Positions 30,249-62,542 of a DNA stretch of 64,000 nucleotides are shown here, piece by piece. How positions within the stretch are numbered: the stretch's first letter is position 1; the number at the start of each line of letters is the position of its first letter. A program made the translations under genes and the position numbers. Below the pieces are notes generated by a model that saw nothing but the letters and a program-made list of their open reading frames with translations, did no database searches and was not told where the DNA came from. Source of the stretch: a virus (Duplodnaviria; Caudoviricetes); IMG/VR virus record IMGVR_UViG_3300009129_001428, positions 1-64,000 of that record; one strand, given 5' to 3'.

Positions 30249-30406
30249 TTGCAGTAATTCGGGTCTTCGGCTCGCTTTCTTCTCATGTACTCCCGTTTTT
30301 GTTTGCGCCTACGGTCTAAATCCGCATCGTCATATTTCTTTCGGGCGCGAGCCTGAGCCTCTTTGCCTTTTTTGCTAGTCAGATATTTTTTTTGCCTTTC
30401 GCTCAT
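30236..30406 (-). CDS. Small basic protein
   Basis: K/R-rich; start refined to MSERQKK. Confidence 0.5.
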
Positions 30407-32831
30407 TGGCCTTTTTTGCCACAATAATATTGTTTTTAACGTAAATCTCAAAATTTTTATCCTTTGACAATAAAAGAGGGGCTAGGGCCTTTTCTATTCT
30501 GTCTTCAATTAGCCTTTTGATGGGCCTTGCTCCATCTTTCTTTTCAAGAGCTTCCTGGCTTAGTAAAGAAAGCGCTTTGGGCATCACCTTTAATTTAATC
30601 TCTGATTCAAGCAAGCGAGCTTTAAGCTTCTCTATCTCAATCCCTAGAATCTGTTTAATATGTTTTTCTTCAAATGTATTAAAAACAATAATCTCATCGA
30701 GCCTGTTGATGAACTCTGGTTTAAAAAATGACTTTACTTCTTTCATTACTAAGTCTTTAGTGTCGGTACCTGCATCGAGGAAGCCCATGTTTTTCACTCC
30801 CTTTGCTGCGCTAGCTCCAATGTTACCAGTAAGAATAATGATGCAATTTGCAAAACTAGTTTCCCTCCCAAAATTATCAGTCAACTTTCCTTCTTCTAGA
30901 ATTTGTAGTAACATCTGACAGACGCTAGGGTCGGCCTTTTCTATTTCGTCGAATAAAATAACAGAATAAGGATTCTTCTTAACTTTTTCTGTGAGTTGGC
31001 CTCCCTCTTCATAGCCAATATACCCTGGGGAAGCTCCCACCATGCGAGTTGCAGAGATTTTTTCAGAATACTCTGACATGTCTAATTGAATTAGCTTACT
31101 GTCTCCCCCAAAGACTTCCCGCGCTAAGGTTTTAGCCAAAAAAGTCTTTCCTACCCCACTTGTCCCTAAGCAAAGAAACGCTCCAAAGGGTTTGTTTTTT
31201 TGTTTTAAGGGAGTGTGGCCTCTTAATAGGCAGTTATATACTTTATCTAATACTTCGTCCTGCCCGATAATAATCTTTCTTAGCCGCTTGTTCAGGCTAT
31301 GAAATCTCTCTTTGGACGCATTATATAAAGACTGCAGTGGCACTTTAGCCTTTTGTGAAACAGCTTCAAATACAGCATTCTCTTTAACTATTATTTTAGC
31401 CAGTTCTTTTTTGTTCGCCCATTCTATAAGTATCTCTTGATAACTTTCGAATAAATCCTGCTGTTTCTCCTTGATGGCCTCATTATTGGGATTTTCATCC
31501 TCCTCCATCATTAGCACCTCTATCTCCGCCTCAATATCTTTTGCGCTTTGGGGTCGTTGATAATGAAGAATCTTAGTCTTAGCTCCAGCTTGGTCCAGTA
31601 GGTCAATGGCCTTGTCGGGGAAGTTCTTGCCTCCCATGTACTTGTCCGACAGGTTAACGCAGAGTTCTAGCGCTCGGTCGCTATATTTAACCCCATGAAA
31701 ATCTTCGTAGTGTTGCTTGATCCCTTTTAATATTTCTAAAGCTTCTTTTTTTGATGGCTCCTCGATTTTAACTGCTTGGAAGCGCCTGTCCAAAGCCCCG
31801 TCTTTAGCTATTGTTTTTTTGTGTTCCTCATGCGTGGTCGCTCCAATACAAACAAGCTCTCCCCTCGCTAGGGCTGGCTTGAACATGTTTGCAGCATCCA
31901 TAGTGCCCTCTGCGCTTCCAGCGCCAACAATAGTATGAATTTCATCAATAAATAAAATGACATGGTCTACTTGCGAGACCTCTTTAATGATCTTTTTTAA
32001 GCGTTCCTCAAACTGGCCTCTGTATTTCGTACCCGCTATAAGCATCCCCAGATCTAGCCCATAAATAATTTTATTTAATAAATATTCTGGGGCCTCTCCT
32101 TGAACGATTTGTGCCGCTAAGCCCTCTACTATAGCGGTCTTGCCTACTCCTGGATCTCCAATTAGAATAGGATTGTTTTTCTTTTTCTGGCATAAAATCT
32201 CGCAAGTTTCTCTAATTTCCTCAGTCCTCCCTACAACTTTATCTATTTTTTTATTAACCACTAATTCATTAAAATTAACAGCAAATTTAGGTAGATACTC
32301 TACTCGTGCGCCAGGCTCAGGCAGGCTCTCTAGGGGATCTTCTCTTGCGCCCATATATGGCGACTCCATTGTTTCTGAATCTAAATCAGAAAAGTGCCTT
32401 TTCATTGCGGCGGCGATAAGCTTGGGGTCAATGCCTGTTTCGACGGCATACACATTGATTGGCGACTCAGTGTACTGGGAGAGCGCTAAAAATAAATGCT
32501 CTAGGCCTATGTACCCGTGCCCAAGCTTTTCTGCGCAGGCCGCAGCAATGGATAGAGATTGCTTGGCTGAATGAGAAAAAGCGAAAGTATCCGCCTCTTG
32601 TTGTGGAAAATTTTTATTCGCCTCAATTAAAGATAAGACATAAGTCTCTAGCGAACCCTCATCTATTTGAGATTTCTTCAGGATTCTTGCAATCGCTTCT
32701 GCTTTTATTGCGAGTACGCCATAGGCTAAATGATTAATGTCTATAACACTACTAGAGCTTTCTTTTGCTGTCTCTTTTGCTATTTCAATGGCTTCTTGCG
32801 CCCGAGGCGTAAAATTAGGTACTGTCTCCAT
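30375..32831 (-). CDS. clpC: ClpC/ClpA-type Hsp100 ATPase subunit of Clp protease
   Basis: N-domain NFTPRAQ/GLEHL, NBD1 GDPGVGKT + FIDEIH, short middle domain, NBD2 GTSGVGKT + FDEIEKA, ClpP-docking MGF loop, [15 protein letters not shown]; start refined to METVP. Confidence 0.93.
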
Positions 32832-32842
32832 ATTGTATGTAT

Positions 32843-32849
32843 TTACACT
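32843..32849 (-). promoter_or_regulatory. AGTGTAA motif upstream of clpC
   Basis: AGTGTAA, then 11 nt to ATG 32831. Confidence 0.55.
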
Positions 32850-35427
32850 ATTTAATATCTCCAAGTTTCATGTAGATTTGTTCGTCTATTACTGATATAT
32901 TATCTAAGAATAAAATGTCATCGCCCTTTCTCGCTGTAAAAACGACAATACTATCCTTTTTGGGGAGCTTATTCTTTTCTAAAAAGCGGTCTACCCTATT
33001 GTTTTGCTGCCATCTCCCATTAACCTGGCTTCTCCCATTTAAAAGCAGGCCATCGGTTGTTGCCGTTTCGTCTGAAACCGTAAACCTAATGTAGTCATTG
33101 CCATTGCGGCTCCTGCGTTTAATAACATCCTGCACTACTCCAATAAATTTTCCCCTATCTCTTTCTTCCATCTCTGTAGCATATAATAAATTATTTACAT
33201 CTGCATCTCTAAATACTTCTGTCAGTTTATATGTATAACTGTAACCTAAAAGCTTTCTCTCAAAATACCAATTAGCGAACTGTTCGTGGCTCTTATTTTG
33301 CAAATAAATCTTTTTATAAGCCCCATACTTCTTCTTGAATGTCCCAAATCTTTTTTCTGGCATTAATATTCTTCCGTCGTCTCCGAGCATCTTTGTCCTC
33401 TGTGTTTCTGCTATGCAATCAAGTAGTTGGTAGTTTTTCTTTTCTCCCATTTCTACAAAATTACGTTTCTCTCGGTCAGTTAAAATATTAAAAGCCTGCG
33501 CTTCTAATACCAGCAATGACCTGCTCCCGTTCGAACACGAAGACATCGCTCCTGCTTGAATTAAGGCAGACAAGGTTCCTATGTTTAAGCCCGCGCTCTT
33601 GGCTGTTAAAAATATATCATATTTATTTGACCTCTCAGAATCCCTAAAATCTTTTAAGTTTTGTAATGATTTTTCGCTAATACCTTTTATGCTATTCAGC
33701 CCATATCTTATATTTTTGCCTTCAATAGTAAAATCCATATCGGACTTGATTAAGTCTGGAGGTAAAAGTTTAATGTCAAAATAAGGCAGCTCTTGAGAGA
33801 TCTTGCATATCTCGTCATATGGAGAAGGCTCAAACTTGGTCATTTTTAATAATGACTGAAAAAATTGTAATGGATATTTGAACTTTAAATAGGTCGTCCA
33901 CGCCGCTAAAGTGGCATATGATATGGAGTGACTTTTATTAAAAGAGTAATTAGCGCTATCCTCTGCTACTTTCCATAGTACCTCTCCAGCCTCATGAGGG
34001 AAATTATTTTCTATAATCTTTTGTTCGATTTTGCTTTTCCATGTAGACATCTCTTCCACCTTTTTCTTCCCAACAATACGCCTAAGTTGTTCCGCTTCAT
34101 CGAGGCTGAAGCCAACTTTTACCGCCATTTTCATTAATTGCTCTTGATAAAGAGGAATCCCCCCTGTATACGAGAGAATGTCGTCAAAAAATGGATGCAC
34201 GCTTTGGGACTCTCCAGTAGAAGCGAATTTTACGAAGCTATCCATAAAGTCTAGTGCTCCTGGCCTTCCGATTGCTACTACTGCGCTCAGCATTTCTAGG
34301 TTGTTGGGCTTAACTTTCCGACAAACTTTAAAATTTGTATCTGCTTCTATCTGGAAAAGCCCATGCGGGCATCTTAGTCCATCCCTCAAGGGCTTAAAAA
34401 CCTCCTTCTTCTCAACAGAAATAGAGTCTACGTCTAAATCAAGAGTGTTACAGACATCATAGATCACGCTTAAAGTTCTTAAGCCTAATATATCAAATTT
34501 AACCATGAGTTCCGCAACCCAGTTCATGTCGTAGCCGCTAACTAGACCGCCGTCGTTCGTGCTTTGTAGCGGACAAATTTCTTCTAATTTTTGAAATGAA
34601 ATAGCAATGCCTGAGGGGTGTACTCCTGTATTCTTATTTAGCCCCTCAAGCTTCTTCGCTACTTTGAAGGTGGCGGGATTATCTGTTACCCAATCCTGAA
34701 ACTTCTCGCTCTCTTCGTTTGCTTCGTCGAGGGGCGCAACTTTACCAAATTTTTTAGGAATATAATCGCTCACAATGTTTACGTCTTGTTCCGAGTAGTT
34801 CCCCACGATCTTGCCGCACTCTTTAATGCAAAGTTTGCTGCTTAACGTATTTAGGGTTAAAATATTACAAGTCCTTGCTGGATACCTGCGCTCAATAAAA
34901 GAAACTACCTCCTGCCTGCGCTCATAAGAAATGTCATTGTCGATATCTGCTAGAAGCGACCCGTCAAGATAGGTTACTCCGTCTCCTTCTATTTTTCTTG
35001 CCCTGCTTTTGCTTACGAATCTTTCGAAATATAAATCATATTTTACTGGATCAATATTAGTGACTTCAATTAAATATAATACCAAAGATCCTGCGGCCGA
35101 GCCTCTCCCTGGCCCCGTAGGGATGTCGTTTTCCCCGCAAAAATTATGTACATCCCAGTTTAATAGTATGTAGTCTACAAAACCGAGGTCATCTAGGATG
35201 TCTAGCTCTTGCTTTGCTCTCTCGTAATAAGACTCTTTGTTTTTAAAATTATTAATACCCCGCTTCTTTATTCCTTCCCAGCAAAGCCTTTTCAAGAAAT
35301 CAAAGTTAGAAATCGTAGATTCCACGCCGAGCCTTTCGTAAAACCTGTCTTCTATTTTGATCTCTGGAAGCCTAACGCCAGGAGGGCAAGCGCCTTCATA
35401 ATGAGTAAAGCCTTCAAAGAAACTCAT
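32848..35427 (-). CDS. dnaE: DNA polymerase III alpha (DnaE) catalytic core lacking the PHP domain
   Basis: [48 protein letters not shown]-terminal OB fold; ATGA-coupled start 35427. Confidence 0.95.
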
Positions 35428-36062
35428 ATCTCTACCTCCCATATCTGCCTACGAAATATTTGATAGTTCATTTTTACATCGTAAATCGCATCGTGCAATT
35501 TCCTTTGGTCAAATTTAAGATCGTAAGATTTACATAAAGCGGTAATGCTGGCCTTCATTCCTCTTTGTCTAAATGAAGTTAGCTTGTACTGCCAAGACAA
35601 AAGCTTATCCTTGGGCGGTTTAATGTCTTTGTGAATAGCCTTCGCTATGCATAAGGTATCAATCAGATTGTTTAGGTATGAATAATCTGGCTTCTTGCCT
35701 AAGGCTCTACGAAAAATAGAATGAATATAGACATCAAAGCCTAGCAGATTGTGCCCGAGCTTAATATAGGCTGGGTCATAAAGGTATCTTTCCATGAATT
35801 CCAGTACTTTTTCTGGCTCAACCGCCTCCTTGTCGTATTTTTTTCTATTAAATCCTGTAATTTTCGCCGCATCTGCCGAGACCTCTAGGTTGTCCCACTT
35901 AATTAAAAAATCATATTCTTTTTTTACTTTGTCTCCTTCGCATAAAATAAACCCCAATTGCCAAGGCTTGTTGTTCTTTCTACATAGATTGAGGCTGCAG
36001 GTCTCAAAATCAAATACCATATATTTTTGTTTATTATTAAATCTAAGCAATTGTTCTTTCAT
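35424..36062 (-). CDS. DEDDh 3'-5' exonuclease (Pol III epsilon-like)
   Basis: VFDFET, GHNLLGFD, IDTL, HDAIYDV; leaderless start at 36062. Confidence 0.9.
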   Translation of the reverse strand: MKEQLLRFNNKQKYMVFDFETCSLNLCRKNNKPWQLGFILCEGDKVKKEYDFLIKWDNLEVSADAAKITGFNRKKYDKEAVEPEKVLEFMERYLYDPAYIKLGHNLLGFDVYIHSIFRRALGKKPDYSYLNNLIDTLCIAKAIHKDIKPPKDKLLSWQYKLTSFRQRGMKASITALCKSYDLKFDQRKLHDAIYDVKMNYQIFRRQIWEVEI

Positions 36063-36069
36063 CTTTGGT

Positions 36070-36098
36070 ATTTTACTATATTCTCTCTTGGCAGTCAA
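36070..36098 (-). promoter_or_regulatory. Sigma70-type promoter for exonuclease-dnaE, leaderless
   Basis: TTGACT-17-TAAAAT, then 7 nt to ATG. Confidence 0.75.
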
Positions 36099-36121
36099 TA
36101 AAATTGTGTAAATATCTATAT

Positions 36122-36562
36122 ATGAACGAAATTAGTATCATTACCGCCGTAGCAATCTGTATTTGTGGGGCTTTCGTTACTGGCTCTGTGGCATTCGTTA
36201 TTAAATCCTTAATGAATGATATTAAACAGGCAGAAGTCACAGCTGAAAAGGGAATGGAGTTTGTCAGGTCTGAAATATTTGGATTAAGAAAGTCTCTAGA
36301 CGCTTTTAAGTCCGAAGAGAGGCATAAGGATGATGAGCTAAAGGTGGCAATAGATCAAACCAAAAAAGAATTAAGAGAGGAATCTCGAGCAGATAGATTA
36401 TATGTCGATAGCACAAAAAAAGAACTAAAAGAAGAAATGCATTATTATTGGAGCAAGGCAGAAAATGTTTTAGAGGCTCGGAGGCAAGACGTATATATGA
36501 TACATAAAAAAATCGACACCATAAAAGACGAAACCCTAAAAAAGCTGGACGACCTTAAGTAA
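36122..36562 (+). CDS. Opposite-strand protein with N-terminal TM helix and long coiled coil
   Basis: MNEISIITAVAICICGAFVTGSVAFVI then heptads; GTGTAA at 36106-36111, 10 nt upstream. Confidence 0.7.
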   Translation: MNEISIITAVAICICGAFVTGSVAFVIKSLMNDIKQAEVTAEKGMEFVRSEIFGLRKSLDAFKSEERHKDDELKVAIDQTKKELREESRADRLYVDSTKKELKEEMHYYWSKAENVLEARRQDVYMIHKKIDTIKDETLKKLDDLK

Positions 36563-37286
36563 CCACCTCTTTTCTCCAGCTTTCAAAAGAAAATTGATCG
36601 CTGCCTTGATGGTCGAAATTAGGGCAATCTAAAGTTCTGGACTTAAACCCGCGATTGCAGATGCATTTGTAGGACTGGTATGCCGAAAAGTCCTTTTCTG
36701 TCGGGTAGTAAATGCTTTTTGCTTGTTGAGTGGTATATTTATTTTTAGAGCAATAAGATTCAATCTCCTCTTTTACTAATCGGTCAAATGGCAAGTTATT
36801 GTCCTCAATCAAAAACACAGGAGATGTAAATGAGAAATCGGGAGTACAAGTAGAAAAGTGCATCGTGTTATTAAAAATAAAAGAATCATAAAAGGGGATT
36901 GCTAGCTTCAAGTCATCGTCCGACCAAACCTCTCTAAGAAAATTCTCATCCAAAACGCCGCCCGTTTCTACAAATGCATTAGAGTATATTAGGTTTAGCT
37001 TTTGACAGCCCATCGAGTTTTTTGCAAAGACAATAATCTTATGCTTGCAATCTTCTGATTGGGTTGGATTGTTGGAAATCTCCACCCTTAAACCAAACCT
37101 AAGTTTTCTCCCCTCTTCATCAAAAGCTTTCCTGGCTTCTAAAAAACCAATTAAAGAATCTTCAACTAAAACAACCTCTTCTAGCTCGGCGTCTCGAGCT
37201 AGGGAAAGAATACTCCGATCCGTGTCTTGTTCAAGCGTAAGAATACTGCGACCGATTGAATAATGGGATTTAAATAAAGGAATCAT
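36555..37286 (-). CDS. Stand-alone PHP domain of DnaE
   Basis: PLFKSHYSIGRSIL, GLRVEI, IIVFAKNSMGCQKLNLIYS; matches the DnaE N-terminal PHP pattern with degenerate metal ligands. Confidence 0.8.
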   Translation of the reverse strand: MIPLFKSHYSIGRSILTLEQDTDRSILSLARDAELEEVVLVEDSLIGFLEARKAFDEEGRKLRFGLRVEISNNPTQSEDCKHKIIVFAKNSMGCQKLNLIYSNAFVETGGVLDENFLREVWSDDDLKLAIPFYDSFIFNNTMHFSTCTPDFSFTSPVFLIEDNNLPFDRLVKEEIESYCSKNKYTTQQAKSIYYPTEKDFSAYQSYKCICNRGFKSRTLDCPNFDHQGSDQFSFESWRKEVVT

Positions 37287-41665: not shown

Positions 41666-42076
41666 TTATAGTAAAACTCCTATTTTTTTGAAATAATCTT
41701 TAGTCAACTCGTCAATAGAATATATCTCTATCAAGCGAATGTCATTCAAGTCGCAAAAGGACTGTTTATCTTGGTCTCTGCGCAGTTGGTTTATGTAGTT
41801 ATATTTATTGTTCCCGTGAAAAAAGGGAGTATATTCTGTGTGCTGCCTGCCTTGGACCTCTATTGCGATTTTCTTGTTTGCATTATAGAAATCTAAAGAC
41901 ATTTTTGTGCCTGCGACTGGGAACTCTTCAAAAACTACGTGTTTTTGCCAAAAGTCTTTTAAAAAATCTTTCGTAGCTTTTTGTATCTTGCTTCTGCTCT
42001 TTGCCTCCCAGTTGATGAGGTATTTCTTCGCCCTTGGGACACTGCGGGTTGCCCCCATCAGGGTTATGAACTTCAT
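41666..42076 (-). CDS. DUF559/Vsr-like endonuclease
   Basis: EEFP...LDFY...IAIEVQGRQH...D..K...C..N.I.LIEI. Confidence 0.8.
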   Translation of the reverse strand: MKFITLMGATRSVPRAKKYLINWEAKSRSKIQKATKDFLKDFWQKHVVFEEFPVAGTKMSLDFYNANKKIAIEVQGRQHTEYTPFFHGNNKYNYINQLRRDQDKQSFCDLNDIRLIEIYSIDELTKDYFKKIGVLL

Positions 42077-43168: not shown

Positions 43169-43510
43169 TTATTCTGATAAGAAATCGCTGATTGTTCTCT
43201 CTGTTTTTTTAATATTTGCATCTTGTCCTATTTTTTGTTCTTCTAGTTGTGGCGCGGAATACTTTGGCACCACATAGTTATAATCTAAATACTTTTTCTT
43301 TACAAACTTTTTCCAGTTGGGGCTAGCTAATATAGCTAGGCTATCAAACTTTTGATAAAAATCTACAACGCTCCAAAAGCATTGGTCTGGAAATTCCTTG
43401 AGGAATCTATTCAGAAGCGTCATTTCTTTTTTCCAGAAAGCCCTCTTATTGGCTTTTGGTTCATTAATATGCCTCTGTATTATTTGTCTTTTATTTAAGC
43501 ACTTCTTCAT
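43169..43510 (-). CDS. Hypothetical protein
   Basis: Start refined to MKKCL because the longer track ORF runs into the tmRNA; promoter TTGACT-17-TATCCT at 43554-43582. Confidence 0.6.
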   Translation of the reverse strand: MKKCLNKRQIIQRHINEPKANKRAFWKKEMTLLNRFLKEFPDQCFWSVVDFYQKFDSLAILASPNWKKFVKKKYLDYNYVVPKYSAPQLEEQKIGQDANIKKTERTISDFLSE

Positions 43511-43590
43511 GTATGTCGTCCACTGTCCTCTCGCTTCGTTTTTTATTTTTTTTAGGATATACGATATTCCCGAAAAAGTCAAGAAGGAAA

Positions 43591-44024
43591 TGGTGGAGAT
43601 GGCGGGAGTCGAACCCGCGTCCTTGTATAGATCCATAATCTATCTCGTTACAAGTTTGTCCTGCTTTTTTATGTTGTTGCAAACTCAACATTCAATTTCA
43701 TTTATTTGCCTCCGAATACTCAGCGGACTACAGTTTGTGAATATGAATAACTTTTTCTGTTTTCTGCAGATGTCGTCCTCGCATTCCTTTATCTGCGTCC
43801 CAGATGCAAGGGGTAGCTTATGCTACAGCAGCCAGCTGACGCGCAACACTCTTACGAGCAGCAACCTTGCGGGTTGCAACCTTCTTAGAAGGATTGAAGC
43901 GGTCAAGCAGACCATTTACAAGTTTAGATTTGGCACTTATATAAGCCTTGGGCTTTTTAAGGAGCCAGCCCACTCCTACTTGCAATAAAAAATTTAGCTA
44001 ACAAGTCGAATCCTTGTCATCCCC
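43591..44024 (-). ncRNA. ssrA: tmRNA, one-piece, 434 nt
   Basis: 5' GGGGATGACAAGGATTCGAC; 3' GCGGGTTCGACTCCCGCCATCTCCACCA; acceptor stem with G3-U70; pseudoknot 1 at 43949-43977; resume context TAAGT-GCC; tag frame 43934-43818. Confidence 0.96.
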
Positions 44025-44046
44025 ATATCAAATAACTAAAGTTAGT

Positions 44047-44053
44047 TTACACT
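44047..44053 (-). promoter_or_regulatory. AGTGTAA motif upstream of tmRNA
   Basis: 22 nt upstream of the mature 5' G. Confidence 0.55.
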
Positions 44054-44055
44054 AA

Positions 44056-44979
44056 TCACTTAGCTTTGTCAAGCTTGCGTTCTGTTTTAATTAGAAAAGG
44101 ATACTTGCTCACTTCTGTGCCCCCGCCCTCTCCCGCGTCGCTGATCCCGCTTTTAATTCCACTATCTTCTACCGCAATCTTTTTAAGGTTCTTTAGGGAG
44201 GGCGCTTCAATATTAGGGTCAATAGCCCATAGTACATCGTTTTCTTTCGCCCAGCGCTTCATCCGCCGAATTGGAACTGTTAAATTAAAACCTTCTCCTG
44301 CTCCGCGCACAAGCATACCCACATAGCGGCCGTCTGTAAGAAAAACCCCGCCTCCTGAGGAGCCTGGGAATGCGGTCACTGTAGTTTGGTCGTACTCTTG
44401 CTTGCCATGAATCCTGCCGACTTGCGACACAATGCCCGTGGTCATAGAGTTCGCTCCCATCTGGCCCAATAAAGACCCTACATGGAAAAGGCTTGTGCCA
44501 ATAGGGACAATAGCATCGTCTGCATTAAGATAAAATCGCGCGCTTTCCTTAGAGTAGTCCTTGGCTCGTACCATAAGCAATGCAAGATCATGGCCGTCAT
44601 CAGCATTAGAATATTTAATAACCATTGCATCCATTTTGATTTCGCCCACACGCCTTCCTTCAGAGACAAGTTCCTTTACTATCTGTGCGTCCTGAAACTC
44701 TACTACTTTACGAGGGCGCCCGCTCTCGTCAATTACATCTCGTACAGTTCGAAGGTTATCGACTACATGGGCCGCCGTCCACACAAAAGTGACCTCGCTC
44801 CCCTCGATTTCTCTAACGATCAACACCCCTGACCCCTCGGACTTGCTCCACTTCCCTTCGGATTTAATAGTAACCGAAATGTCCTGAAGAAAATTGGCAA
44901 CACGCTTTCTGTTCTTCAAGTCTTCTGAAAAGGTGGGGGTTGCAACTAAAAATGCCAAGAATAATGTAATGTACTTCAT
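44056..44979 (-). CDS. Secreted trypsin-like (S1) serine protease
   Basis: Signal peptide; GSGVLI, WTAAHVV (His), HDLALL (Asp), PGSSGGGVF (Ser). Confidence 0.88.
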   Translation of the reverse strand: MKYITLFLAFLVATPTFSEDLKNRKRVANFLQDISVTIKSEGKWSKSEGSGVLIVREIEGSEVTFVWTAAHVVDNLRTVRDVIDESGRPRKVVEFQDAQIVKELVSEGRRVGEIKMDAMVIKYSNADDGHDLALLMVRAKDYSKESARFYLNADDAIVPIGTSLFHVGSLLGQMGANSMTTGIVSQVGRIHGKQEYDQTTVTAFPGSSGGGVFLTDGRYVGMLVRGAGEGFNLTVPIRRMKRWAKENDVLWAIDPNIEAPSLKNLKKIAVEDSGIKSGISDAGEGGGTEVSKYPFLIKTERKLDKAK

Positions 44980-47885: not shown

Positions 47886-48809
47886 TTATAAATACTTCGA
47901 TATTGAACTCGGTAATACGTTTTGTGCTCTAATTCTTACCTTCTCTGCTAAATAGGGGTCTCTCTTGGAGCCGCCTACTAGGTGGGTATATTTTATGTTA
48001 TTGGAACCTCTGTAAACGAAGGCTCCCTCTTTTTTAAAGTCTAATTCATTACATATCCTATAGCCTGGGGGCGGTTCGAGAAGTGGTACAAATATTTTGT
48101 TCTTTTTAAAAGCTAGATGAGAAAATAACCACTGTTCATAAATTGCATTAAAGCTGTCTCCCATATCGTGGTTGCGAATATATTTCATATTGGATTCGTC
48201 TTGCAAAATGTCGAAAACTTTAGAGCAATAATATTGTATAAAATTTAAGTCTGTACCTCCAAATATACCAAAATTGGGAGTAAGGACAGGGTTATTTGTT
48301 TTATCCCTGTCAAAGCCTATGAGCCACATTATCTTTTTAAAAAAAGAAAAGTATGGCGAGAAGCTGTATCGAAGGGGGGAGTTTAATATCTTGCGAAAGC
48401 AAAAATTGTAAAGCGGCATCTTGTATTCTACGCTTTGGCAAATCAAACCCTGACTTAAAAACTCTAGAGGTGGCCGCTCCCATAGGAATACATCGTTGTC
48501 TACATGTAAAAACGAATCTTCCTGCAGGGAATAGGTTTTTATTTTGGGATAAGCCCACAGGCTGGGCGGTATATTAAGTTCGTGTAGTTGTTGCAGGCTT
48601 GAATCAACTTCGTCAAACAAAGGCAAAAAGCGTTTTAGGTCTTGCAGCCCCTGCCTGTCCGTATATAAAAATACTTTTTTAAACCAATGACGAGCACAAA
48701 AAGCTGATAAAGCAAAAGAGGATTCAAAATCTTTTTGATTATTGAATCCACAATACCTATTAAGGTAATTCGGTATAGACCAATGGGTAAAAACTGCCGT
48801 ATGAATCAT
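47886..48809 (-). CDS. DUF6734-like putative glycosyltransferase
   Basis: HWS, V.LYTD..G, LWAYPKI..Y, FLHVDNDVFLW, YTHL.G. Confidence 0.6.
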   Translation of the reverse strand: MIHTAVFTHWSIPNYLNRYCGFNNQKDFESSFALSAFCARHWFKKVFLYTDRQGLQDLKRFLPLFDEVDSSLQQLHELNIPPSLWAYPKIKTYSLQEDSFLHVDNDVFLWERPPLEFLSQGLICQSVEYKMPLYNFCFRKILNSPLRYSFSPYFSFFKKIMWLIGFDRDKTNNPVLTPNFGIFGGTDLNFIQYYCSKVFDILQDESNMKYIRNHDMGDSFNAIYEQWLFSHLAFKKNKIFVPLLEPPPGYRICNELDFKKEGAFVYRGSNNIKYTHLVGGSKRDPYLAEKVRIRAQNVLPSSISKYL

Positions 48810-49825
48810 TAAAAATCATCCTCTAGCGCCCCGCTTTGCTGGTATTCCCTCACCCTTCTTTCAAAAAAGTTAGTCATTGCTTGGGTGTCTACTACTTCCG
48901 AAAGCCATGGAAATGGATTTTGATCAGAAGGAAAACGATAACTAAGACCAATAGCCTCCATCCTGCGGTTGCCAATGTAATGCATATAGTCTACAAACAT
49001 GTCTGAATTTAAGCCAAGTATACCTGTCGGCAAAACATCTTTAGCGTAGTTAACTTCTAGTTCTACTGTTTTCTTCATGTGTTCAGTGAACTCTTCCTGA
49101 ATAGCTTTTGTCCATATTTTTGGGTTTTGATCTATTAGGGTATTAATAAGGTAAGTGCCGAACTCGATGTGTAAACTCTCGTCTCTAAGAGTATATTTGA
49201 TCTGGTCAGAAACCCCCTGTAATTTATTTTGCCTTCCGAGGGCGAGGAGCATCGCAAAGCCCGAAAAGAAAAACGTTCCTTCGCAAATTATGTAGTAGGT
49301 GAATAGGTTTTTAAGCAATTCTTTTTTGCCTGTCAATGTTGTGCTAGTGAAGTCAGGGCGATTTAGATCACTAGTAATCTCCATTAAAAATTCATCCTTA
49401 GCTTTAATAGAGGGGACAGTTTCGTAAGCCCTGTATACTTCGTCAATATCTAAGTCAAGGCTGTCGCAGATGTATACGATAGTAAGGTTGTGTAGGCTCT
49501 CTTCAAATGCCTGTCGTAAAATGTACTGCCTGCATTCAGCATCAGTAATATATTTAAATGCAGACATCAATAAATTGTTCCCCACCAACGACTCGCTTCC
49601 CGCAAAAAATCCTAAACAACGCTTTACCAAAAGCTTTTCATCGTCAGATATTTCTCCGCCCTTCCATTGCTTAATATCGTCTTGCATTGAAATTTCAGTT
49701 GGCATCCAGTTGTTGGCGCAACCTTTTAGGAAAAGATCCCACGCAAACTTATGTTTATGAGGAAGGATACGATTTACTGAAGCGATATCTTCAGTGATTA
49801 AATCAGATGTTTTTTCGTCTTGCAT
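48809..49825 (-). CDS. nrdB: Ribonucleotide reductase beta subunit with class Ic (R2c)-type signature
   Basis: NWMPTEI, FFAGSESLVGNN, EESLH, CEGTFFFSGF, RDESLH, NFFERRV. Confidence 0.95.
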   Translation of the reverse strand: MQDEKTSDLITEDIASVNRILPHKHKFAWDLFLKGCANNWMPTEISMQDDIKQWKGGEISDDEKLLVKRCLGFFAGSESLVGNNLLMSAFKYITDAECRQYILRQAFEESLHNLTIVYICDSLDLDIDEVYRAYETVPSIKAKDEFLMEITSDLNRPDFTSTTLTGKKELLKNLFTYYIICEGTFFFSGFAMLLALGRQNKLQGVSDQIKYTLRDESLHIEFGTYLINTLIDQNPKIWTKAIQEEFTEHMKKTVELEVNYAKDVLPTGILGLNSDMFVDYMHYIGNRRMEAIGLSYRFPSDQNPFPWLSEVVDTQAMTNFFERRVREYQQSGALEDDF

Positions 49826-49831
49826 CGCTTT

Positions 49832-49860
49832 ATAATATTATAATTAACAGTTAATGTCAA
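49832..49860 (-). promoter_or_regulatory. Sigma70-type promoter for nrdB, leaderless
   Basis: TTGACA-17-TATTAT, then 6 nt to ATG. Confidence 0.75.
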
Positions 49861-49870
49861 GACAAACGAC

Positions 49871-50380
49871 CTATTCTGGGGGATAGATCATCCAGAATAT
49901 TGATTTCTCCCCAAATGAGGAGGTGTATTTATATTTATCTTTGTTCTCGTAGCTTTCAAAAAACATTTGGTACTGACGTCCGAAACTATTTATAGATTTT
50001 TTTATTGTATCCATCTCTCCAATGAATTGAGCTCTCCTGGTATTAAAAAGATATAAATGTGTGCGCATCATCTTATTATTGACTACTCCAAAAATTTCCT
50101 GCACCCTGCCGACAGAAAGTTTTGGGTTAGGCTCTAGGGGATTCAAGTTAATTAAAAAACAATGGGGCAGCTCGGCTTCGTCAATTATTTCCATTACTTC
50201 TTCTATGACGTCGTCGCCGTTGCAAACTTTTACTGTTGCGCCAGTCTCTTCTAGAACAGCCTTAGTATTCTCGCACTCATTTCCAGCAATAACAAAAACT
50301 CCAGCCTTCAGTTTATCATAGCCAAAATTAATTAATAACCGCTTGTATTTATTTATAGTTGTATCTAGGAAGGAGATCAT
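49871..50380 (-). CDS. Hypothetical protein
   Basis: 169 aa ORF whose first 13 codons are duplicated upstream. Confidence 0.7.
   Translation of the reverse strand: MISFLDTTINKYKRLLINFGYDKLKAGVFVIAGNECENTKAVLEETGATVKVCNGDDVIEEVMEIIDEAELPHCFLINLNPLEPNPKLSVGRVQEIFGVVNNKMMRTHLYLFNTRRAQFIGEMDTIKKSINSFGRQYQMFFESYENKDKYKYTSSFGEKSIFWMIYPPE
50341..50380. repeat. Direct repeat copy A (37/40 identical to 51122-51161)
   Basis: gcttgtatttatttatagttgtatctaggaaggagatcat. Confidence 0.95.
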
Positions 50381-50389
50381 AGTTCGATT

Positions 50390-51118
50390 CTAATTATACT
50401 TGCTGTAGTATGGGCCTCTTTCATTTGCTGCCGAATTCCATCTGCCTCTGTGGCCTCCATGAATGCCAAAAAATGAATCGGAATATTTAAACTCTTTATC
50501 CTTGATTCTTTCGTATAATTTATTCATGTCGTCAATTCTTTTGTACATATCTTTTTTTGCCTCTAATTCATTTTTAGTAAAAAATTTTTGAGGAAGAAAG
50601 TCCTTGCATGCCAGGTAGAAATAATTGACTATATCTTTTAAATTATAATCTTTCGTCTCTAGTATTTTTTCATAGGGAATAATAAGGATATTTGACCTGT
50701 CGTTTGAAGAAACTTCTTGAGGGATTATAGCCTTTAGGTCTGCAAGCTCCTTTGGGTCCCGAAATTCATCCGTTATCAACTCAATAGGAGCGCGCTGCCT
50801 TTTGGCTCTGTCTGTCGTCAAAAAATAGAGTCTATGTATCGACCCGAACGCGCGCTCCCACTTATCGTAATCTATGCAATGAGATTTAGAGATAAATTTA
50901 TTAATGCTAGGACCTATGTCTATTAATGAATAAGATTGAACAGCTTGATTAGCCCCTTGTGAAGTACGGTTGTGACTAAGTGGCCCCATATAGACTGGGG
51001 AAGTCGGGCATAATAATCCGTGCAATAAATTTTGGACAACCGTGCTTCCTGTCCCTGGTAGAGACGCCTGAATAATTCTTGTGTCACAACTGGGAGTATT
51101 TGTATAATCAAATTTCAT
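50390..51118 (-). CDS. Sulfotransferase-like P-loop protein
   Basis: ASLPGTGSTVVQNLL, KSH, IIPYE; C-terminal GIHGGH. Confidence 0.5.
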   Translation of the reverse strand: MKFDYTNTPSCDTRIIQASLPGTGSTVVQNLLHGLLCPTSPVYMGPLSHNRTSQGANQAVQSYSLIDIGPSINKFISKSHCIDYDKWERAFGSIHRLYFLTTDRAKRQRAPIELITDEFRDPKELADLKAIIPQEVSSNDRSNILIIPYEKILETKDYNLKDIVNYFYLACKDFLPQKFFTKNELEAKKDMYKRIDDMNKLYERIKDKEFKYSDSFFGIHGGHRGRWNSAANERGPYYSKYN

Positions 51119-51121
51119 AAT

Positions 51122-51161
51122 GCTTGTATTTATTTATAGTTGTATCTAAAAAGGAGGTCAT
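51122..51161. repeat. Direct repeat copy B (truncated gene start MTSFLDTTINKYK)
   Basis: gcttgtatttatttatagttgtatctaaaaaggaggtcat. Confidence 0.95.
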
Positions 51162-51173
51162 CTTAAGTTTTTT

Positions 51174-51902
51174 TCATGTAGTAGACCAATAGTCATAGGA
51201 TTTCATCCTATCGATTTTACAGCCTTTCCCTATTACACAATTAAAGTGAATCATTTTACAGGTTTTATCTATTCTTTCTGAGTGTTTATAATACCACGCT
51301 CCATTTGGGTATAGATCTTTATCTAGAAGCGTGGATTTAACTTTGTTTTGGGCTATTAGTGGTCGCAGAAAGTCTTGATCATGAACCTTTGGCTTATCTT
51401 GTGTTAAAAATAGATTTATGATATCTTTATCGAAGCTGGGGGATAGGCTAAAGAAGCCAGCACATGGCAAGTCCTCGTGGTTGGACTGTATTAATAAATG
51501 ATCCTGATCCTTGTTGAGTTGATTTAATATATCTTCCTGGAAGTTATTTTTTACGACGATATCTATATCTAGGTAAGTTAGTGTTCTGCCGCTTTCTAGA
51601 ATCGGTTTGGCTATGTGGTACTTAGCAAAACAGATCCAGTTGAATTCTGGAGTGTTGAATTTTAAAAAATTGGCATGAGCCCCATATCCTAGGCGAGACG
51701 CATCTACGACATCACAAAGTCCGCTCATTTTGTTTAGGGATTCTTTATCTACCGCAAAAAAAACAATTGGGAAATCTTGAAGCCTGCAGCTTTTCACTAA
51801 GTTGCTCGCAAGTTCTATTCCTCCAATATTACAATAAGCATAATTAACGTGGTTGTCTTTATACTCGCTAATAAATTCATTTATGCTGTTAAAGTTTTTC
51901 AT
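51174..51902 (-). CDS. Nucleotide-diphospho-sugar transferase (GT77-like)
   Basis: YLDIDIV, CAGFF, DQD, LYPNG, IHFNC..G..KI. Confidence 0.8.
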   Translation of the reverse strand: MKNFNSINEFISEYKDNHVNYAYCNIGGIELASNLVKSCRLQDFPIVFFAVDKESLNKMSGLCDVVDASRLGYGAHANFLKFNTPEFNWICFAKYHIAKPILESGRTLTYLDIDIVVKNNFQEDILNQLNKDQDHLLIQSNHEDLPCAGFFSLSPSFDKDIINLFLTQDKPKVHDQDFLRPLIAQNKVKSTLLDKDLYPNGAWYYKHSERIDKTCKMIHFNCVIGKGCKIDRMKSYDYWSTT

Positions 51903-51939
51903 TTTTTTATGGGTTTTATCCTGGGTTTGTGATGCATAA

Positions 51940-52971
51940 TTACATATTAATTAAACCGCTTATTGTTTCAATATCAGCAAATAGATTAGCTGACCGACTA
52001 ATCTTACAAAGACGGGGGAGGCACATATGGCCTAGGCGGCCCACAGGAGGAGCTCCGTTAAAGGAAGGCTCGAATTTACAGGGTATATTATAAAAATCAT
52101 TATTTAATTCATGAGTTAAATAATATTCACAACTCCATTTTGCGTGAGGTAAAATGTTTCCTTGTTTATCTCTCGGTGCTTTCCACCAGCTTTCGTTAAG
52201 ATCAGGATGTTGAAGCAAAAATATCTTGCTTCCTGGTTTTGATAGGAATAAAGTAGACATCCAGGCTCCATATGCACCTATAAATATATCAGACTCTAAA
52301 AAAGGGCGCACCCTTTCCGCGGGACTAAGGTTTTCCCAGAAATCGAGTGTTGCTGTAATCGTTTTAATGTTTTTCTTGCGAAAAAAATCTACAAGATCTT
52401 TTTCATTGAGTATGTGTCTGCCTGGGTGAGAGTTTTTACCTGCAAAGGTTTTAGGGTGCTGAAAAATAAAGGCTTGTTTGTTCTGCGCCTTAATAGATTT
52501 ATCTCTATCTATGTTTTCATAAAAGTTATTTCTCCAATAGGTTACTAGGCTATGCCCCTTTATTTTAAAAGAAAATTCTCTATCAACACATGGGACAAAC
52601 GCATTCTCAACTTTATATAATACATCTTTATCTAAAACTGTAACCCGATTTTTAACTTCCGAAGGAAGAAGATTTAATGCCAGATATAAATGGCTATCTA
52701 AATAGCCTGCGGGAATTAAAATGTTATCAAAATCTAAATTAAAAAAATCCGAGCCCCAACAAGCCAAGCCAAAAAAACTATAGTAATGATCATTTAAAAA
52801 ATGACCTAAATTTCCTTTTACGTGCTTGAGGATTAACGACTTTCCCTTGATTAGTTTCTTTTCTTCCCCTGTTTCCAGTATGATATCATGGGATAGATCT
52901 TCTGTGGCGCGATCAAACTCATGGTTTTTTAAAAAAAAGTTTCGAACATGTTGAAAATATGGTTGCTTCAT
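51940..52971 (-). CDS. Glycosyltransferase GT61 (DUF563)-like
   Basis: NLGHFLND, RHILNEKDL, DIFIGAYGAWMSTLFL. Confidence 0.7.
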   Translation of the reverse strand: MKQPYFQHVRNFFLKNHEFDRATEDLSHDIILETGEEKKLIKGKSLILKHVKGNLGHFLNDHYYSFFGLACWGSDFFNLDFDNILIPAGYLDSHLYLALNLLPSEVKNRVTVLDKDVLYKVENAFVPCVDREFSFKIKGHSLVTYWRNNFYENIDRDKSIKAQNKQAFIFQHPKTFAGKNSHPGRHILNEKDLVDFFRKKNIKTITATLDFWENLSPAERVRPFLESDIFIGAYGAWMSTLFLSKPGSKIFLLQHPDLNESWWKAPRDKQGNILPHAKWSCEYYLTHELNNDFYNIPCKFEPSFNGAPPVGRLGHMCLPRLCKISRSANLFADIETISGLINM

Positions 52972-53048
52972 TATTAATTAATCTATGGCTGATCCGTAAA
53001 ACATGATAAAATTTCATCGGCAATAGCTGGCTTTGTGCTCTCGATGCA

Positions 53049-53705
53049 TTAGAGGGTGGAAAGAAAATTGTCGACCATCTGTTTTTTGCTTAGGTGGAAC
53101 TCTCTTTTCCATGGCGGTGTATTCTGTATGGCCATTTGCGGGGTTACACAGAATGAGTTTAAGTTTGCAGGGAGCCATATATCATTAGTGGGGCACCTTT
53201 CTGGGTCAAATTCATTTATAATTTTATCAAAAATGCTAGAATGGTAAGCGCTGGCAGCTTGGTTGCAGAGTGGGTGATTAAGCTCCTTTTTAAATTCGAC
53301 AAGGCTCGGGTGTCGCCTACACACGAGCCCTAGCTCCCGTCCTTCCTCTAGGTGTTGTAGGCTGCCGTGATAAGTATAACTCATTCTCAGGAAATCCCAC
53401 TGATTATTGGTTAAATAAGGAATAATGGAATTTAATGCAGATGTATCAAAATCAATAAACTCCACGTCATCTTCAAATACAAATACCGAATCTAGCCCTC
53501 TTTTTTTTGCTTCTTTGACTATGTTTAAGTGGGAGAAGCCGCAACCCTTAGGTCCCTTGGCGTGAGATACGGCTGGGAATCTAGTTACATTTAAAATACC
53601 ATAAGCATTCATCGTCTCATAGAAAGATTGAAGACGGTTTTCTTGGCTATCTACATTGATAACAAATCTATCACCAAAAAATGAAAAAAATGTATTATTG
53701 CTCAT
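53049..53705 (-). CDS. Glycosyltransferase GT25-like
   Basis: INVDSQENR, RFPAV, GCGFSH, VFEDDV, D.W. Confidence 0.8.
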   Translation of the reverse strand: MSNNTFFSFFGDRFVINVDSQENRLQSFYETMNAYGILNVTRFPAVSHAKGPKGCGFSHLNIVKEAKKRGLDSVFVFEDDVEFIDFDTSALNSIIPYLTNNQWDFLRMSYTYHGSLQHLEEGRELGLVCRRHPSLVEFKKELNHPLCNQAASAYHSSIFDKIINEFDPERCPTNDIWLPANLNSFCVTPQMAIQNTPPWKREFHLSKKQMVDNFLSTL

Positions 53706-53714
53706 TTAAAAACA

Positions 53715-54320
53715 TTATATTTTATAATACCTATTTATGATTTGTGACAGCTGCTTATTTTCTTTCAGCTTATTGATTTGACCGCTATCCAAAAAGTTTT
53801 TGTAATCTGTCTCTCCCAGGTTTTTAGATACACTCCAGGTGTGCCAGTGTTGCGCTTCTGGCCCTGTCTTTTTTAGCTGCTTACACGCTTCCTTGACTCG
53901 CTTTATGTTAAATTGTTTATTAAGCTCCTTTTGCTTGTCGGTTGAGATGGGGGAGCCCGAAGCTTTTTCGATAGCTTGATATATTAATTCAAAATTGCCC
54001 ACAAAATTTTCATAAAATAGTAGCTCTGAATCTCTTGGGGGGAAATTATCTTTACTAATGACAGAGCCTCCGTGATTGAGATATTCTGTAACATGTTCTT
54101 CTAGAGCTTCATCTGTAATGCTCGCCTCAGAATATCTCAGAATTGAAGAAACAATTGAATTGTAAGGGTGACGAATGGTAACTATATAAAAGGCTTTAGG
54201 ATCAGCCTTTGTGAGATGATGATGTTTATGCACGGGCAAATCAACTGTATTGCTTAATAGGTTATATACTAAGGTCGACCCGCTTCTGATTGGGCTAAAC
54301 TGAATGATGTATTCTTTCAT
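53715..54320 (-). CDS. Sulfotransferase-like protein
   Basis: 5'-PSB-like PIRSGSTLVYN, 3'-PB-like IRHPYNSIVS, LFYE. Confidence 0.7.
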   Translation of the reverse strand: MKEYIIQFSPIRSGSTLVYNLLSNTVDLPVHKHHHLTKADPKAFYIVTIRHPYNSIVSSILRYSEASITDEALEEHVTEYLNHGGSVISKDNFPPRDSELLFYENFVGNFELIYQAIEKASGSPISTDKQKELNKQFNIKRVKEACKQLKKTGPEAQHWHTWSVSKNLGETDYKNFLDSGQINKLKENKQLSQIINRYYKI

Positions 54321-54322
54321 TT

Positions 54323-55345: not shown

Positions 55346-55357
55346 AAGTTTAGATTT

Positions 55358-56047
55358 TTAAAAAATATATTTAAATTCGCATATATCTTCTTCATAAAAT
55401 TGTTCTATACGGCTTTTGTCTTTTTTGTTGTACATTTCTTTATAAGGAATTCTTTTTTCGCTGTGATGTTTGTGATGAGGCAAGGTAAGTGTTGATAAAT
55501 TTAGCTCTTGTTGTATTTTATTAAAATCTTCCTGTAAGTTTTCAAATCTTCCCACAAATATATTGGGGTATAATGTTCCATCGACATTACTTTCTAAGTA
55601 TTTTTTATTTAGGTGGGGTATATATTCTACCTGCTTAAATCTAAGGTGAAATGTATCAAACCCTGTTATGTTTGGATGAGAAAAATTATGATTCTCACGG
55701 TTTTTATAGCATTCTTCTGCTAGCAAAGTGTAATCTGAAAAAGACACAATTTTCAAACCCTCCCTTTTTCGTATAGCTAGCGAGTGCAAGTATAAAGAGA
55801 CAAACCTATCCCAAGGATTTCGCACAAACGCAATTAATTTAAAGTGTGGATTCGCCTCAATCGTACGAGCTAGTTGGGAGCCTCGAATAGGAAAAAATAC
55901 ATCCTTAATTTTTTTAGCTTCTTCGGCGTGAGTGTCATGAAAATTCCATGCGTATCCTCCTTCTAGCCTTGAGAAACTATCTTCCATACTCTCTCCTGCC
56001 GTTTTAGGTATATGAATAAAAATAAACCTATGTTTCTTTGAAATCAT
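55358..56047 (-). CDS. Sulfotransferase family 2 protein
   Basis: FIHIPKTAGES, FVRNPWDRFVSLY, FVGRFENLQEDF. Confidence 0.9.
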   Translation of the reverse strand: MISKKHRFIFIHIPKTAGESMEDSFSRLEGGYAWNFHDTHAEEAKKIKDVFFPIRGSQLARTIEANPHFKLIAFVRNPWDRFVSLYLHSLAIRKREGLKIVSFSDYTLLAEECYKNRENHNFSHPNITGFDTFHLRFKQVEYIPHLNKKYLESNVDGTLYPNIFVGRFENLQEDFNKIQQELNLSTLTLPHHKHHSEKRIPYKEMYNKKDKSRIEQFYEEDICEFKYIF

Positions 56048-56048
56048 A

Positions 56049-56882: not shown

Positions 56883-56886
56883 AATA

Positions 56887-61843: not shown

Positions 61844-62542
61844 TTATAGCTCCCCTCTGATTTCATCAATCAGGCCAAGGTTGAGCGCCTCATCCGAAGA
61901 AATCCACCAATCTTTTCTATCCCAATTTCTTTTTATCTTAAGCCTGGTTAGGTTAGATCTTTTTTCAAAAATATCTAGAATGCGAGCTTCTATCCTCTTT
62001 ATCCACGCAGTATGATCCTCAATTTCAAATGTCTTACCCATGATCCCAAAGGCAGCTCTATGGATCATCATCCATGCTTGATGACCCATCCATCGGCGGT
62101 CGCCTGCCTGCAGGAGTATCCCTGCCATAGAAGCCGCCATTCCTAGTGAACCCGTAGTTACTTTATGCCCTCGGGCCCGCAGCTCCTGTATAAAATCAAA
62201 CAAAACAAACCCATCAACAATGGAGCCTCCGCCTGACGAAAAAATAATTTCTATCTCGCAATTTGGGTGCCTCCTTGACCACTGTGTAAGTTTTTGCATG
62301 CAATCATTAACATAGGTTTTGTCTACTACAGTATTAAACCTATAAATCATATTCTCTTTGTCGTCAGCCTTTTCCCTCCTCCATTCCTGGTCCTTTTTCT
62401 CTGCTTCAAGATTTTTTAATTTGGCAGAGCTCTCGGCGCTAAGTGTTTCTGCCTCTAGCTTTCGGATCTCCGCTTCGATTTTACGAGTTTCTGCTTCGAT
62501 TTTACGAAGTTCTTCTTTGCTTTTTTTCTTTTCTTCGCCCAT
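61844..62542 (-). CDS. clpP: ClpP-family (S14) protease with N-terminal coiled coil
   Basis: IFSSGGGSIVDG, GMAASMA (Ser), MIHRA (His), KDWWISSDEALNLGLIDEI (Asp). Confidence 0.9.
   Translation of the reverse strand: MGEEKKKSKEELRKIEAETRKIEAEIRKLEAETLSAESSAKLKNLEAEKKDQEWRREKADDKENMIYRFNTVVDKTYVNDCMQKLTQWSRRHPNCEIEIIFSSGGGSIVDGFVLFDFIQELRARGHKVTTGSLGMAASMAGILLQAGDRRWMGHQAWMMIHRAAFGIMGKTFEIEDHTAWIKRIEARILDIFEKRSNLTRLKIKRNWDRKDWWISSDEALNLGLIDEIRGEL

Follow-up and report, generated by a model that had tools for sequence, protein, structure and literature searches.

A marine phage transfer-messenger RNA with a conserved 38-residue basic tag, a possible phage-specific degradation signal

The stretch of DNA analysed here, positions 1 to 64,000 of the IMG/VR virus record IMGVR_UViG_3300009129_001428 (64,000 nt; hereafter the window), carries at 43591..44024 on the minus strand a one-piece transfer-messenger RNA (tmRNA) gene of 434 nt, which we refer to as type B and whose reading frame encodes a strongly basic peptide tag of 38 residues. 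The window belongs to a phage, as seen from its genes for RIIB, a homing endonuclease, a split PolIII alpha, DnaB, a primase, a RecA-like protein and ribonucleotide reductase (RNR), and from its many relatives in IMG/VR. It also encodes a ClpC-like and a ClpP-like protein and a large island of glycosyltransferases and sulfotransferases. The sequencing runs in which the stretch occurs are marine metagenomes (for runs with a small share of it, the habitat is named no further than 'marine'), and since a neighbouring protein has a 96%-identical counterpart on a contig of 195,933 bp, the complete genome is probably about 200 kb long.

ARAGORN and the Rfam model RF00023 delimit the tmRNA gene at identical positions, the covariance match reaching 116.7 bits (E 6.5e-45; gathering score 47) over model positions 1-374 of 374; seven relatives score 105-127 bits. 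Read directly from the sequence, the molecule has a 7-bp acceptor stem with a G3.U428 pair (the equivalent of G3.U70), a discriminator A, a CCA end and a T arm, and the G3.U pair is kept in 9/9 sequences. Pseudoknot 1 (PK1), also read directly (43949..43977, minus strand), is of the H type (AGGAG/CUCCU plus UGGGCU/AGCCCA) and lies 14 nt before the resume codon. Both of its stems are complementary in the relatives, either unchanged or altered only to G.U, and it is so nearly invariant that covariation cannot prove it. An 18-mer taken from the type-B PK1 matches exactly 11 IMG/VR contigs, the very ones with the basic tag; thus, scaffold and tag travel together. The stop codon lies in the loop of a helix-5-like hairpin (GUAGC-AUAA-GCUAC; 43813..43826, minus strand), which is supported by a compensatory change from GUAGC/GCUAC to GCAGC/GCUGC in 3/9 sequences (pair 201-212). 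Further compensatory changes are found at pairs 5 and 6 of the acceptor stem (A-U/U-A to G-C/C-G), in the T arm and in helix P2. Only nested helices were taken from RNAalifold, which cannot draw pseudoknots and mispaired PK1 with the end of the reading frame. Taken together, the compensatory changes argue that the tmRNA structure is more than chance, and the locus is almost certainly a genuine phage-encoded one-piece tmRNA with a real 38-codon frame. A preliminary description of the locus, made from the sequence alone, had claimed a complete tmRNA, in agreement with ARAGORN and RF00023, and every element that it listed (G3-U70, PK1, resume context and stop hairpin) is borne out by direct reading of the sequence.

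Two side observations concern the 3' end of the gene. In one relative (L049, IMG/VR 3300036716_002035, positions 3198-3206) the tmRNA ends in CTCCAACA instead of CTCCACCA, so that the encoded CCA is altered; the near-identical L050 has a normal end, and the change may be a sequencing error or a variant needing a CCA-adding enzyme. A 155-residue open reading frame (ORF) at 43169-43636 (minus strand), as listed, overlaps the tmRNA 3' end by 46 nt. Because its relatives are similar over only about 110 residues, its true start probably lies downstream of the tmRNA. Its product has no Pfam or PHROG match, and the same ORF also precedes the RecA-like gene in relatives without a tmRNA.

The tag frame (43818..43934, minus strand) is defined by the RF00023 alignment and by the relatives: it has 38 sense codons, from the resume codon GCC at 43934-43932 to a last codon that ends at 43821, followed by the stop codon TAA at 43820-43818. 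The encoded peptide, AKSKLVNGLLDRFNPSKKVATRKVAARKSVARQLAAVA, contains 6 Lys, 4 Arg and 1 Asp, a net charge of +9 over 38 residues. The resume context is UAAGU before GCC in the window and AUAAGU before GCC in all 21 loci; RF00023 puts the resume codon at this GCC, which also aligns with the independently called resume codon of a sister tmRNA (type A, below). Relatives were gathered by searches with the neighbouring proteins and with the tag, yielding 11 IMG/VR contigs and 14 metagenome contigs that reduce to 13 distinct tags. All 13 have exactly 38 codons and are free of indels, several of which occur elsewhere in the RNA. Variable columns number 15, 12 and 24 at the first, second and third codon positions, and the ratio of non-synonymous to synonymous polymorphism (pN/pS) has a median of 0.33 over 73 pairs, with synonymous divergence of up to about 0.48. 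The peptide core GLLDRFNP is invariant while its third codon positions change, the net charge stays between +5 and +9, and the tails are always non-polar and rich in Ala/Val (AAVA, AVAA, TAVA, VAVA, AVAV). The other two reading frames of the region contain stops. This pattern strongly suggests that the frame is under selection at the peptide level. The basic 38-codon frame at 43934-43818 given in the preliminary description was therefore the right one, both by the RF00023 alignment and by its conservation in all relatives; loss of the frame or another resume codon in related tmRNAs had been named there as evidence against the idea, and frame and resume codon are kept in all 13 variants and 21 loci.

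The tag frame that ARAGORN itself proposed in the window, a 33-residue peptide at gene positions 239-340, was rejected, as it is cut to 19 residues in close relatives; in L005 and L006, ARAGORN chose the 38-codon frame. The program left most of the relatives' tmRNAs unreported even though they score 105-127 bits with Rfam, and these genes were therefore located with nhmmer and Rfam instead. The misses are among L003, L004, L038-L041, L049, L050, L053, L060, L064, L065, L067 and L068. Together with the miscall in the window, they indicate that automated phage annotation both under-counts and mis-reads type-B tmRNA.

An AlphaFold2 model built on the 13-sequence alignment predicts a helix at residues 2-12, a break at Asn14-Pro15 and a second helix at 15-37, with a modest predicted local distance difference test score of 69.5. 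Residues 3-14 are moderately amphipathic (helical moment of about 0.6). In the basic stretch, Arg/Lys pairs recur with a period of five residues and are spread around the predicted helix (moment of about 0.1), a near-zero value that argues against an amphipathic helix of the membrane type. The tag can be viewed as three parts, namely a conserved, moderately amphipathic N-terminal helix with GLLDRFNP, a basic stretch and a short Ala/Val tail. Its Lys/Arg richness is not the result of AT drift, since the G+C content of the tag (0.49) exceeds that of the genome (0.375). A tandem triplication of a 15-nt unit (KVATR/KVAAR/KSVAR) was considered as the origin of the basic stretch and dropped: Tandem Repeats Finder detects none at score 30, and only the amino-acid periodicity of five is left.

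To place this peptide, 63 bacterial tmRNA tags were compared: 33 from Verrucomicrobiota, 27 from a second phylum of the PVC (Planctomycetes-Verrucomicrobia-Chlamydiae) type and three from other phyla. Verrucomicrobiota were sampled because the best bacterial matches of the phage ClpC-like protein come mostly from metagenome-assembled genomes of Verrucomicrobiota and Planctomycetota, a ranking possibly biased by the two search patterns; a PVC host is no more than a lead. The Verrucomicrobiota tags are 8-18 residues long with net charges of -2 to 0, those of the second phylum 8-32 residues (20-32 being common) with charges of -5 to +2, and the remaining three 9 residues. No bacterial tag in the sample has more than three Lys/Arg, and the genes measure 345-414 nt. 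Published tags span 8-35 residues (PMC11431127), and an extended tag is known in Mycoplasma according to the title of Ge and Karzai 2009, cited in PMC3985003. Long tags alone are thus not unique, and what sets the type-B tag apart is the combination of 38 residues with a strong positive charge. The view that it is unusually long and basic consequently holds against both the 63 bacterial tags and the published range, but the accompanying statement that bacterial tags measure about 10 residues was too narrow, given the 20-32 residues common in one PVC-type phylum and the extended tag of Mycoplasma. A search of 185,579 bacterial species genomes for the tag motifs found no bacterial copy.

Compared with canonical SsrA (RF00023; E. 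coli tag of 10 residues ending in ALAA), type B shares the tRNA-like domain with G3.U70, PK1, UA at -5/-4, the Ala resume codon, the stop codon in helix 5, further pseudoknots and a hydrophobic Ala-rich tail. It differs in being phage-encoded, in its length of 434 nt, in having no accompanying SmpB gene and in its tag, which is about four times longer, carries +9 rather than a neutral or acidic charge, and ends in AVA or VAA instead of LAA. Phage tmRNAs as such are known: they have been published for Bxz1-type mycobacteriophages and Bacillus phage G (PMC4131195), in two-piece form for Methylophilales phage Melnitz and pelagimyophages (PMC9004378), and for huge phages (PMC7162821), and about 2.3% of sequenced phages have a tmRNA gene (PMC9004378). 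Like type B they are phage-borne, and the roles proposed for them are to keep translation going or to mark proteins for recycling; however, neither long basic tags nor remodelling of the tag within a lineage is described for them (PMC4131195, PMC9004378, PMC7162821), and the Melnitz-type molecule is two-piece whereas type B is one-piece. Our literature search found no paper on long basic phage tags or on tag remodelling.

The closest relative of the type-B scaffold is another phage tmRNA. In the genome G004 (= L070, IMG/VR 3300020442_000008; 95% complete) a tmRNA of 358 nt with the ordinary tag AKNINSVEPFVSEELALAA occupies a different genomic position, and G175 (= L239, IMG/VR 3300017763_000002; 205 kb, complete) has a close variant. 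These type-A tmRNAs measure 358-363 nt and encode acidic tags of 19-20 residues ending in ELALAA. A profile of type B scores 132 bits on the G004 tmRNA, covering all but the tag region, as against at most 41 bits on the 63 bacterial tmRNAs, where only the tRNA-like ends match. The alignment of types A and B reveals a common PK2-PK4 body and an identical resume context, and the final six codons are homologous as well, reading ELALAA in type A and QLAAVA in type B. The type-B reading frame is longer by about 55 nt, and the tag body of type B is basic where type A has a short acidic tag; moreover, the two near-complete type-A genomes lack a ClpP-like gene. The phage backbones are also akin, RecA being 70% and the ClpC-like protein 46-47% identical. 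Since the type-B scaffold is sister to a tmRNA with a short acidic tag, the basic tag is a remodelling of such a tag within a phage tmRNA lineage. Among the 33 Verrucomicrobiota tags, two of 18 residues (L153 and L187, from G006 and G042) have an Asn/Val-rich start and an Ala-Ala end in the style of type A, a faint hint at the source of the phage lineage.

A third and more distant group of marine phages carries one-piece tmRNAs of 405-459 nt (type C), present in all three of its near-complete genomes. Their tags (L261, L287, L300, L302, L326-L331) are conserved, unlike those of hosts, 30-35 residues long and acidic, with net charges of -4 to -10. Type C resembles type B in having a long conserved phage tag on a one-piece molecule and in sharing a genome with a member of the same ClpP-like family (57-66% identity), in many cases at a distance of 3-16 kb from the tmRNA. 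It differs by the opposite charge of the tag, by a scaffold that is only about 50% identical, and by the lack of a ClpC-like gene in the three near-complete genomes. A likeness between the motifs LLDRFN (type B) and ILAKFG (type C) was dropped, as the RNA alignment does not support it.

Both Clp genes of the window lie on the minus strand. The candidate tag reader, at 30375..32864, is a ClpC-like double-ring AAA+ ATPase of 813 residues from an ATG at 32816. It contains the Pfam domains Clp_N, AAA, AAA_lid_9, AAA_2 and ClpB_D2-small and aligns end to end with residues 5-783 of B. subtilis ClpC (E of about 1e-177), with MGF standing where ClpC has the ClpP-docking VGF. It has the features of a ClpC-type unfoldase, namely an N-domain, two AAA+ modules, a short middle domain and a (hydrophobic)-Gly-Phe loop. 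The candidate proteolytic partner, at 61844..62542, is a ClpP-like serine peptidase of 232 residues that matches solved ClpP structures (E 1e-17), the positions of the Ser, His and Asp motifs being aligned. Its neighbours are non-structural and vary among lineages, with an RNR subunit beside it in one case and PhoH, accompanied by an epimerase and a sulfotransferase, in a second. Because of these neighbours, and because related near-complete phages have no ClpP-like gene, we regard it, with reservations, as an accessory peptidase of the ClpP type.

The combination of Clp genes differs between the three tag types. Type-A phages (G004, 95% complete, and G175, 100% complete; 19-20 residues, acidic) have the ClpC-like gene without the ClpP-like one, type-C phages (G178, G182 and G184, 91-100% complete; 30-35 residues, net -4 to -10) the ClpP-like gene without the ClpC-like one, and type-B phages (38 residues, basic) have both in the window and in G001, the sole other basic-tag record large enough for its Clp content to be judged. 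Four more basic-tag contigs hold the ClpP-like gene, and the best five viral matches to that of the window (74-78% identical) are all on type-B contigs. Two type-B contigs of one sublineage have both genes on one strand, with the end of the tmRNA 384 nt upstream of the ClpP-like gene; the distance is 4.2 kb in two others and about 18 kb in the window and its nearest relative. In another type-B lineage (L064), the tmRNA lies 2.8 kb from the ClpC-like gene. This three-way pattern of Clp gene content and the sister relation of types A and B are the new elements of the present work.

The surroundings of the tmRNA vary among these contigs. In L250 (9184-10723; IMG/VR 3300009706_000034-type contigs, also L249) a block made of the tmRNA, the ClpP-like gene, a 162-residue ORF and the RNR small subunit sits between an S1-C protease gene and the RecA-like gene, where the window has the tmRNA alone; the interval from the TM544 gene to orf140 resembles a hot spot for insertions. 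The S1-C (Trypsin_2) protease, which adjoins the tmRNA in the window (44056-44979), was considered as a tail-specific protease for the tag and rejected as a specific partner. Its family is huge (3069 matches), it occurs without a tmRNA in L043 and L044, and in L005 no such gene stands between TM544 and the tmRNA; of the protein, nothing beyond a DegQ-like protease core can be recognised.

A sigma-70-like promoter, TTGACA-17-TAAACT (44044..44072, minus strand), which matches the consensus at 10/12 positions, ends 19 nt before the mature 5' end of the tmRNA, and the leader in between would need processing by RNase P. Contigs from three metatranscriptome runs of three studies cover 43664-44016 at 98-99% identity and all end at 44016, followed in one of the three by Illumina adapter; they give a weak hint that the tmRNA is expressed. 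The three runs have no cover of the flanking genes, which is not evidence of anything, and deep cover at 43591-43622 corresponds to the universal tmRNA 3' end of many organisms. SmpB (PF01668) was found neither among the window ORFs of at least 110 residues nor in five related records (two near-complete, most fragments); the tmRNA presumably has to use the SmpB of the host.

We propose the following scheme. The tmRNA, probably transcribed from its own sigma-70-like promoter, would be charged with alanine by the host alanyl-tRNA synthetase (AlaRS) through G3.U70 and the discriminator A, and delivered to stalled ribosomes by host SmpB and EF-Tu. Translation would resume at GCC, so that unfinished proteins receive the 38-residue tag. 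Its Ala/Val tail, the type of ending that AAA+ proteases read on ordinary ssrA tags, would engage a Clp-type unfoldase, with the extended tag body giving specificity, and the phage ClpC-like protein docked on the ClpP-like peptidase would clear and recycle the rescue products under phage control instead of by the SspB/ClpXP-type route of the host. The tag itself arose in the phage tmRNA lineage by expansion of an ordinary 19-20-residue tag ending in ELALAA. It is known that AAA+ proteases read the C-terminal ALAA of ssrA tags (PMC3985003). In Mycoplasma the tail is AFA instead of ALAA, alongside the loss of ClpXP, ClpAP and Tsp, and the title of Ge and Karzai 2009 speaks of co-evolution of the extended tag with Lon (PMC3985003). 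A tail varying in step with the available proteases may serve as a precedent for a private degradation signal (degron), with the difference that the Mycoplasma system is cellular and uses Lon, whereas type B is phage-borne, strongly basic and has Clp-type candidate readers. That the tag works as a degron is rather probable. The best overall reading, a phage-specific degradation signal whose likely machinery is the phage ClpC-like/ClpP-like pair, stands at about an even chance, and the narrower claim that this pair reads the tag specifically is possible, though doubtful.

Several observations weigh against a phage-specific degron. The PHROGs family of the ClpP-like protein is annotated as 'head maturation protease'. 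The contrast in Clp content draws on few and phylogenetically non-independent genomes (two of type A and two of type B). The ClpC-like gene is also present in short-tag phages, and the ClpP-like gene in phages with long acidic tags and no ClpC-like gene, so that neither gene alone tracks the basic tag. The pN/pS of 0.33 over 114 nt is moderate, and constraint from RNA structure may also act on these codons. Finally, the tag ends in AVA, VAA or VAV and not in the canonical LAA, and recognition of such tails by a protease is here a prediction. The private degron suggested in the preliminary description is accordingly favoured by circumstantial evidence (the kept Ala/Val tail, both Clp genes in the window and in G001, the ClpP-like gene on four more basic-tag contigs and its closeness to the tmRNA in one sublineage, and its absence from the two near-complete type-A genomes), and weakened by the separate occurrence of the two genes in types A and C.

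The main rival explanation is that ribosome rescue itself is the selected function, for instance after cleavage of host or phage mRNA, that host ClpXP, Lon or FtsH read the tag if anything does, and that its length and charge are tolerated by-products of an insertion or reflect tuning of host recognition. ClpX also accepts MuA-type basic C-terminal signals. Host factors are needed in any case, as no SmpB was found in the window or the five related records, the sister phages manage with an ordinary ELALAA tag, and the Ala/Val tail is of the general ssrA kind (PMC3985003). However, the length of 38 codons is fixed in all 13 variants at a synonymous divergence of up to about 0.48, and this, along with the invariant GLLDRFNP and the charge kept between +5 and +9, argues that the tag body is selected and not merely tolerated; the repeated linkage to a ClpP-like gene is also left unexplained. 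We therefore consider this explanation rather unlikely. Quite improbable in our view is that the tag is not a degron at all, and that its basic body binds nucleic acid, ribosomes or polyphosphate, or jams or titrates host proteases, thereby sequestering or redirecting unfinished proteins or shielding phage proteins from the ssrA pathway of the host. The charge of +9 over 38 residues and the basic pairs placed every five residues around the predicted helix do recall arginine-rich nucleic-acid-binding peptides, and the G+C content of the tag speaks against drift as the source of this richness. But the arguments for this explanation, and for the nucleic-acid binding or new localisation suggested in the preliminary description, are arguments from composition. 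In its hydrophobic Ala/Val tail and in the position of its stop codon in helix 5, the tag conforms exactly to degradation tags, and since RNAs of the same kind carry long, strongly acidic tags in related phages, charge as such is not the common feature. The possibility that the 38-codon frame is not translated, the resume point lying elsewhere (as in the ARAGORN frame) or the RNA acting as a decoy for SmpB or AlaRS, is very improbable indeed. ARAGORN did call the other frame in the window, and phage tmRNA fragments of the DS6A type, which could act by titrating SmpB, are on record (PMC4131195); yet the ARAGORN frame is shortened in close relatives, the program itself picks the 38-codon frame in L005 and L006, the latter frame has a coding type of conservation, and its resume context matches both the Rfam consensus and the sister tmRNA.

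Other features of the window are listed here for completeness. The replicative polymerase is in pieces (32848-37286, minus strand), with an opposite-strand ORF between pieces: a weakly supported PHP-domain ORF (36555-37286), an RNase T-type exonuclease (35424-36098) and a PolIII alpha core without PHP (32848-35442), all on the minus strand. A run of glycan-modifying genes (47886-60432, minus strand) encodes DUF6734, GT61-like, GT25, GT77-like, GT4 and exostosin GT47 proteins, several sulfotransferases and a protein resembling a carbohydrate-binding module; a KDO-8-phosphate synthase (15984-16808), a sugar epimerase/dehydratase (20718-21761) and a Fringe-like protein are encoded elsewhere. In L064 and L258, too, sulfotransferase genes are neighbours of the tmRNA or of the ClpP-like gene. 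A 751-residue protein with an HSP90/MORC-type ATPase domain (4341-6596, minus strand) and a RuvB-like AAA+ protein (14424-15356, minus strand) add to the ClpC-like protein, giving the phage several ATPases of the chaperone or remodeller kind. An HNH homing-endonuclease-like gene (41666-42076, minus strand) lies between the RecA-like and the orf99/DnaB genes, at the same place in all relatives examined, and the only tRNA gene of the window is a tRNA-Arg(TCT) at 11045-11119 on the minus strand (Rfam, 67 bits).

Few degrons are as well studied as the tags of tmRNA, which are regarded as short, near-universal signals of the ALAA type. Here, a phage lineage has rebuilt an ordinary tag into a 38-residue peptide of charge +9, conserved worldwide, alongside genes for ClpC-like and ClpP-like proteins. 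As a broader view, tentative and on the whole unlikely, large marine phages may run private tag-and-degrade pathways in which short acidic, long acidic or long basic tags are rewritten to match their own Clp components; the basic tag would be a degron for the ClpC-like/ClpP-like pair, through which the phage would divert all products of ribosome rescue, for the most part host proteins while the cell is being taken over, from the quality control of the host into a recycling machine of its own. If the tag is indeed a private degron, phages would reprogram the fate of rescued proteins and not only the availability of ribosomes, and the system would offer synthetic biology a compact orthogonal pair of degron and protease. 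Even if host proteases read it, the tag widens the known sequence space of functional tmRNA tags.

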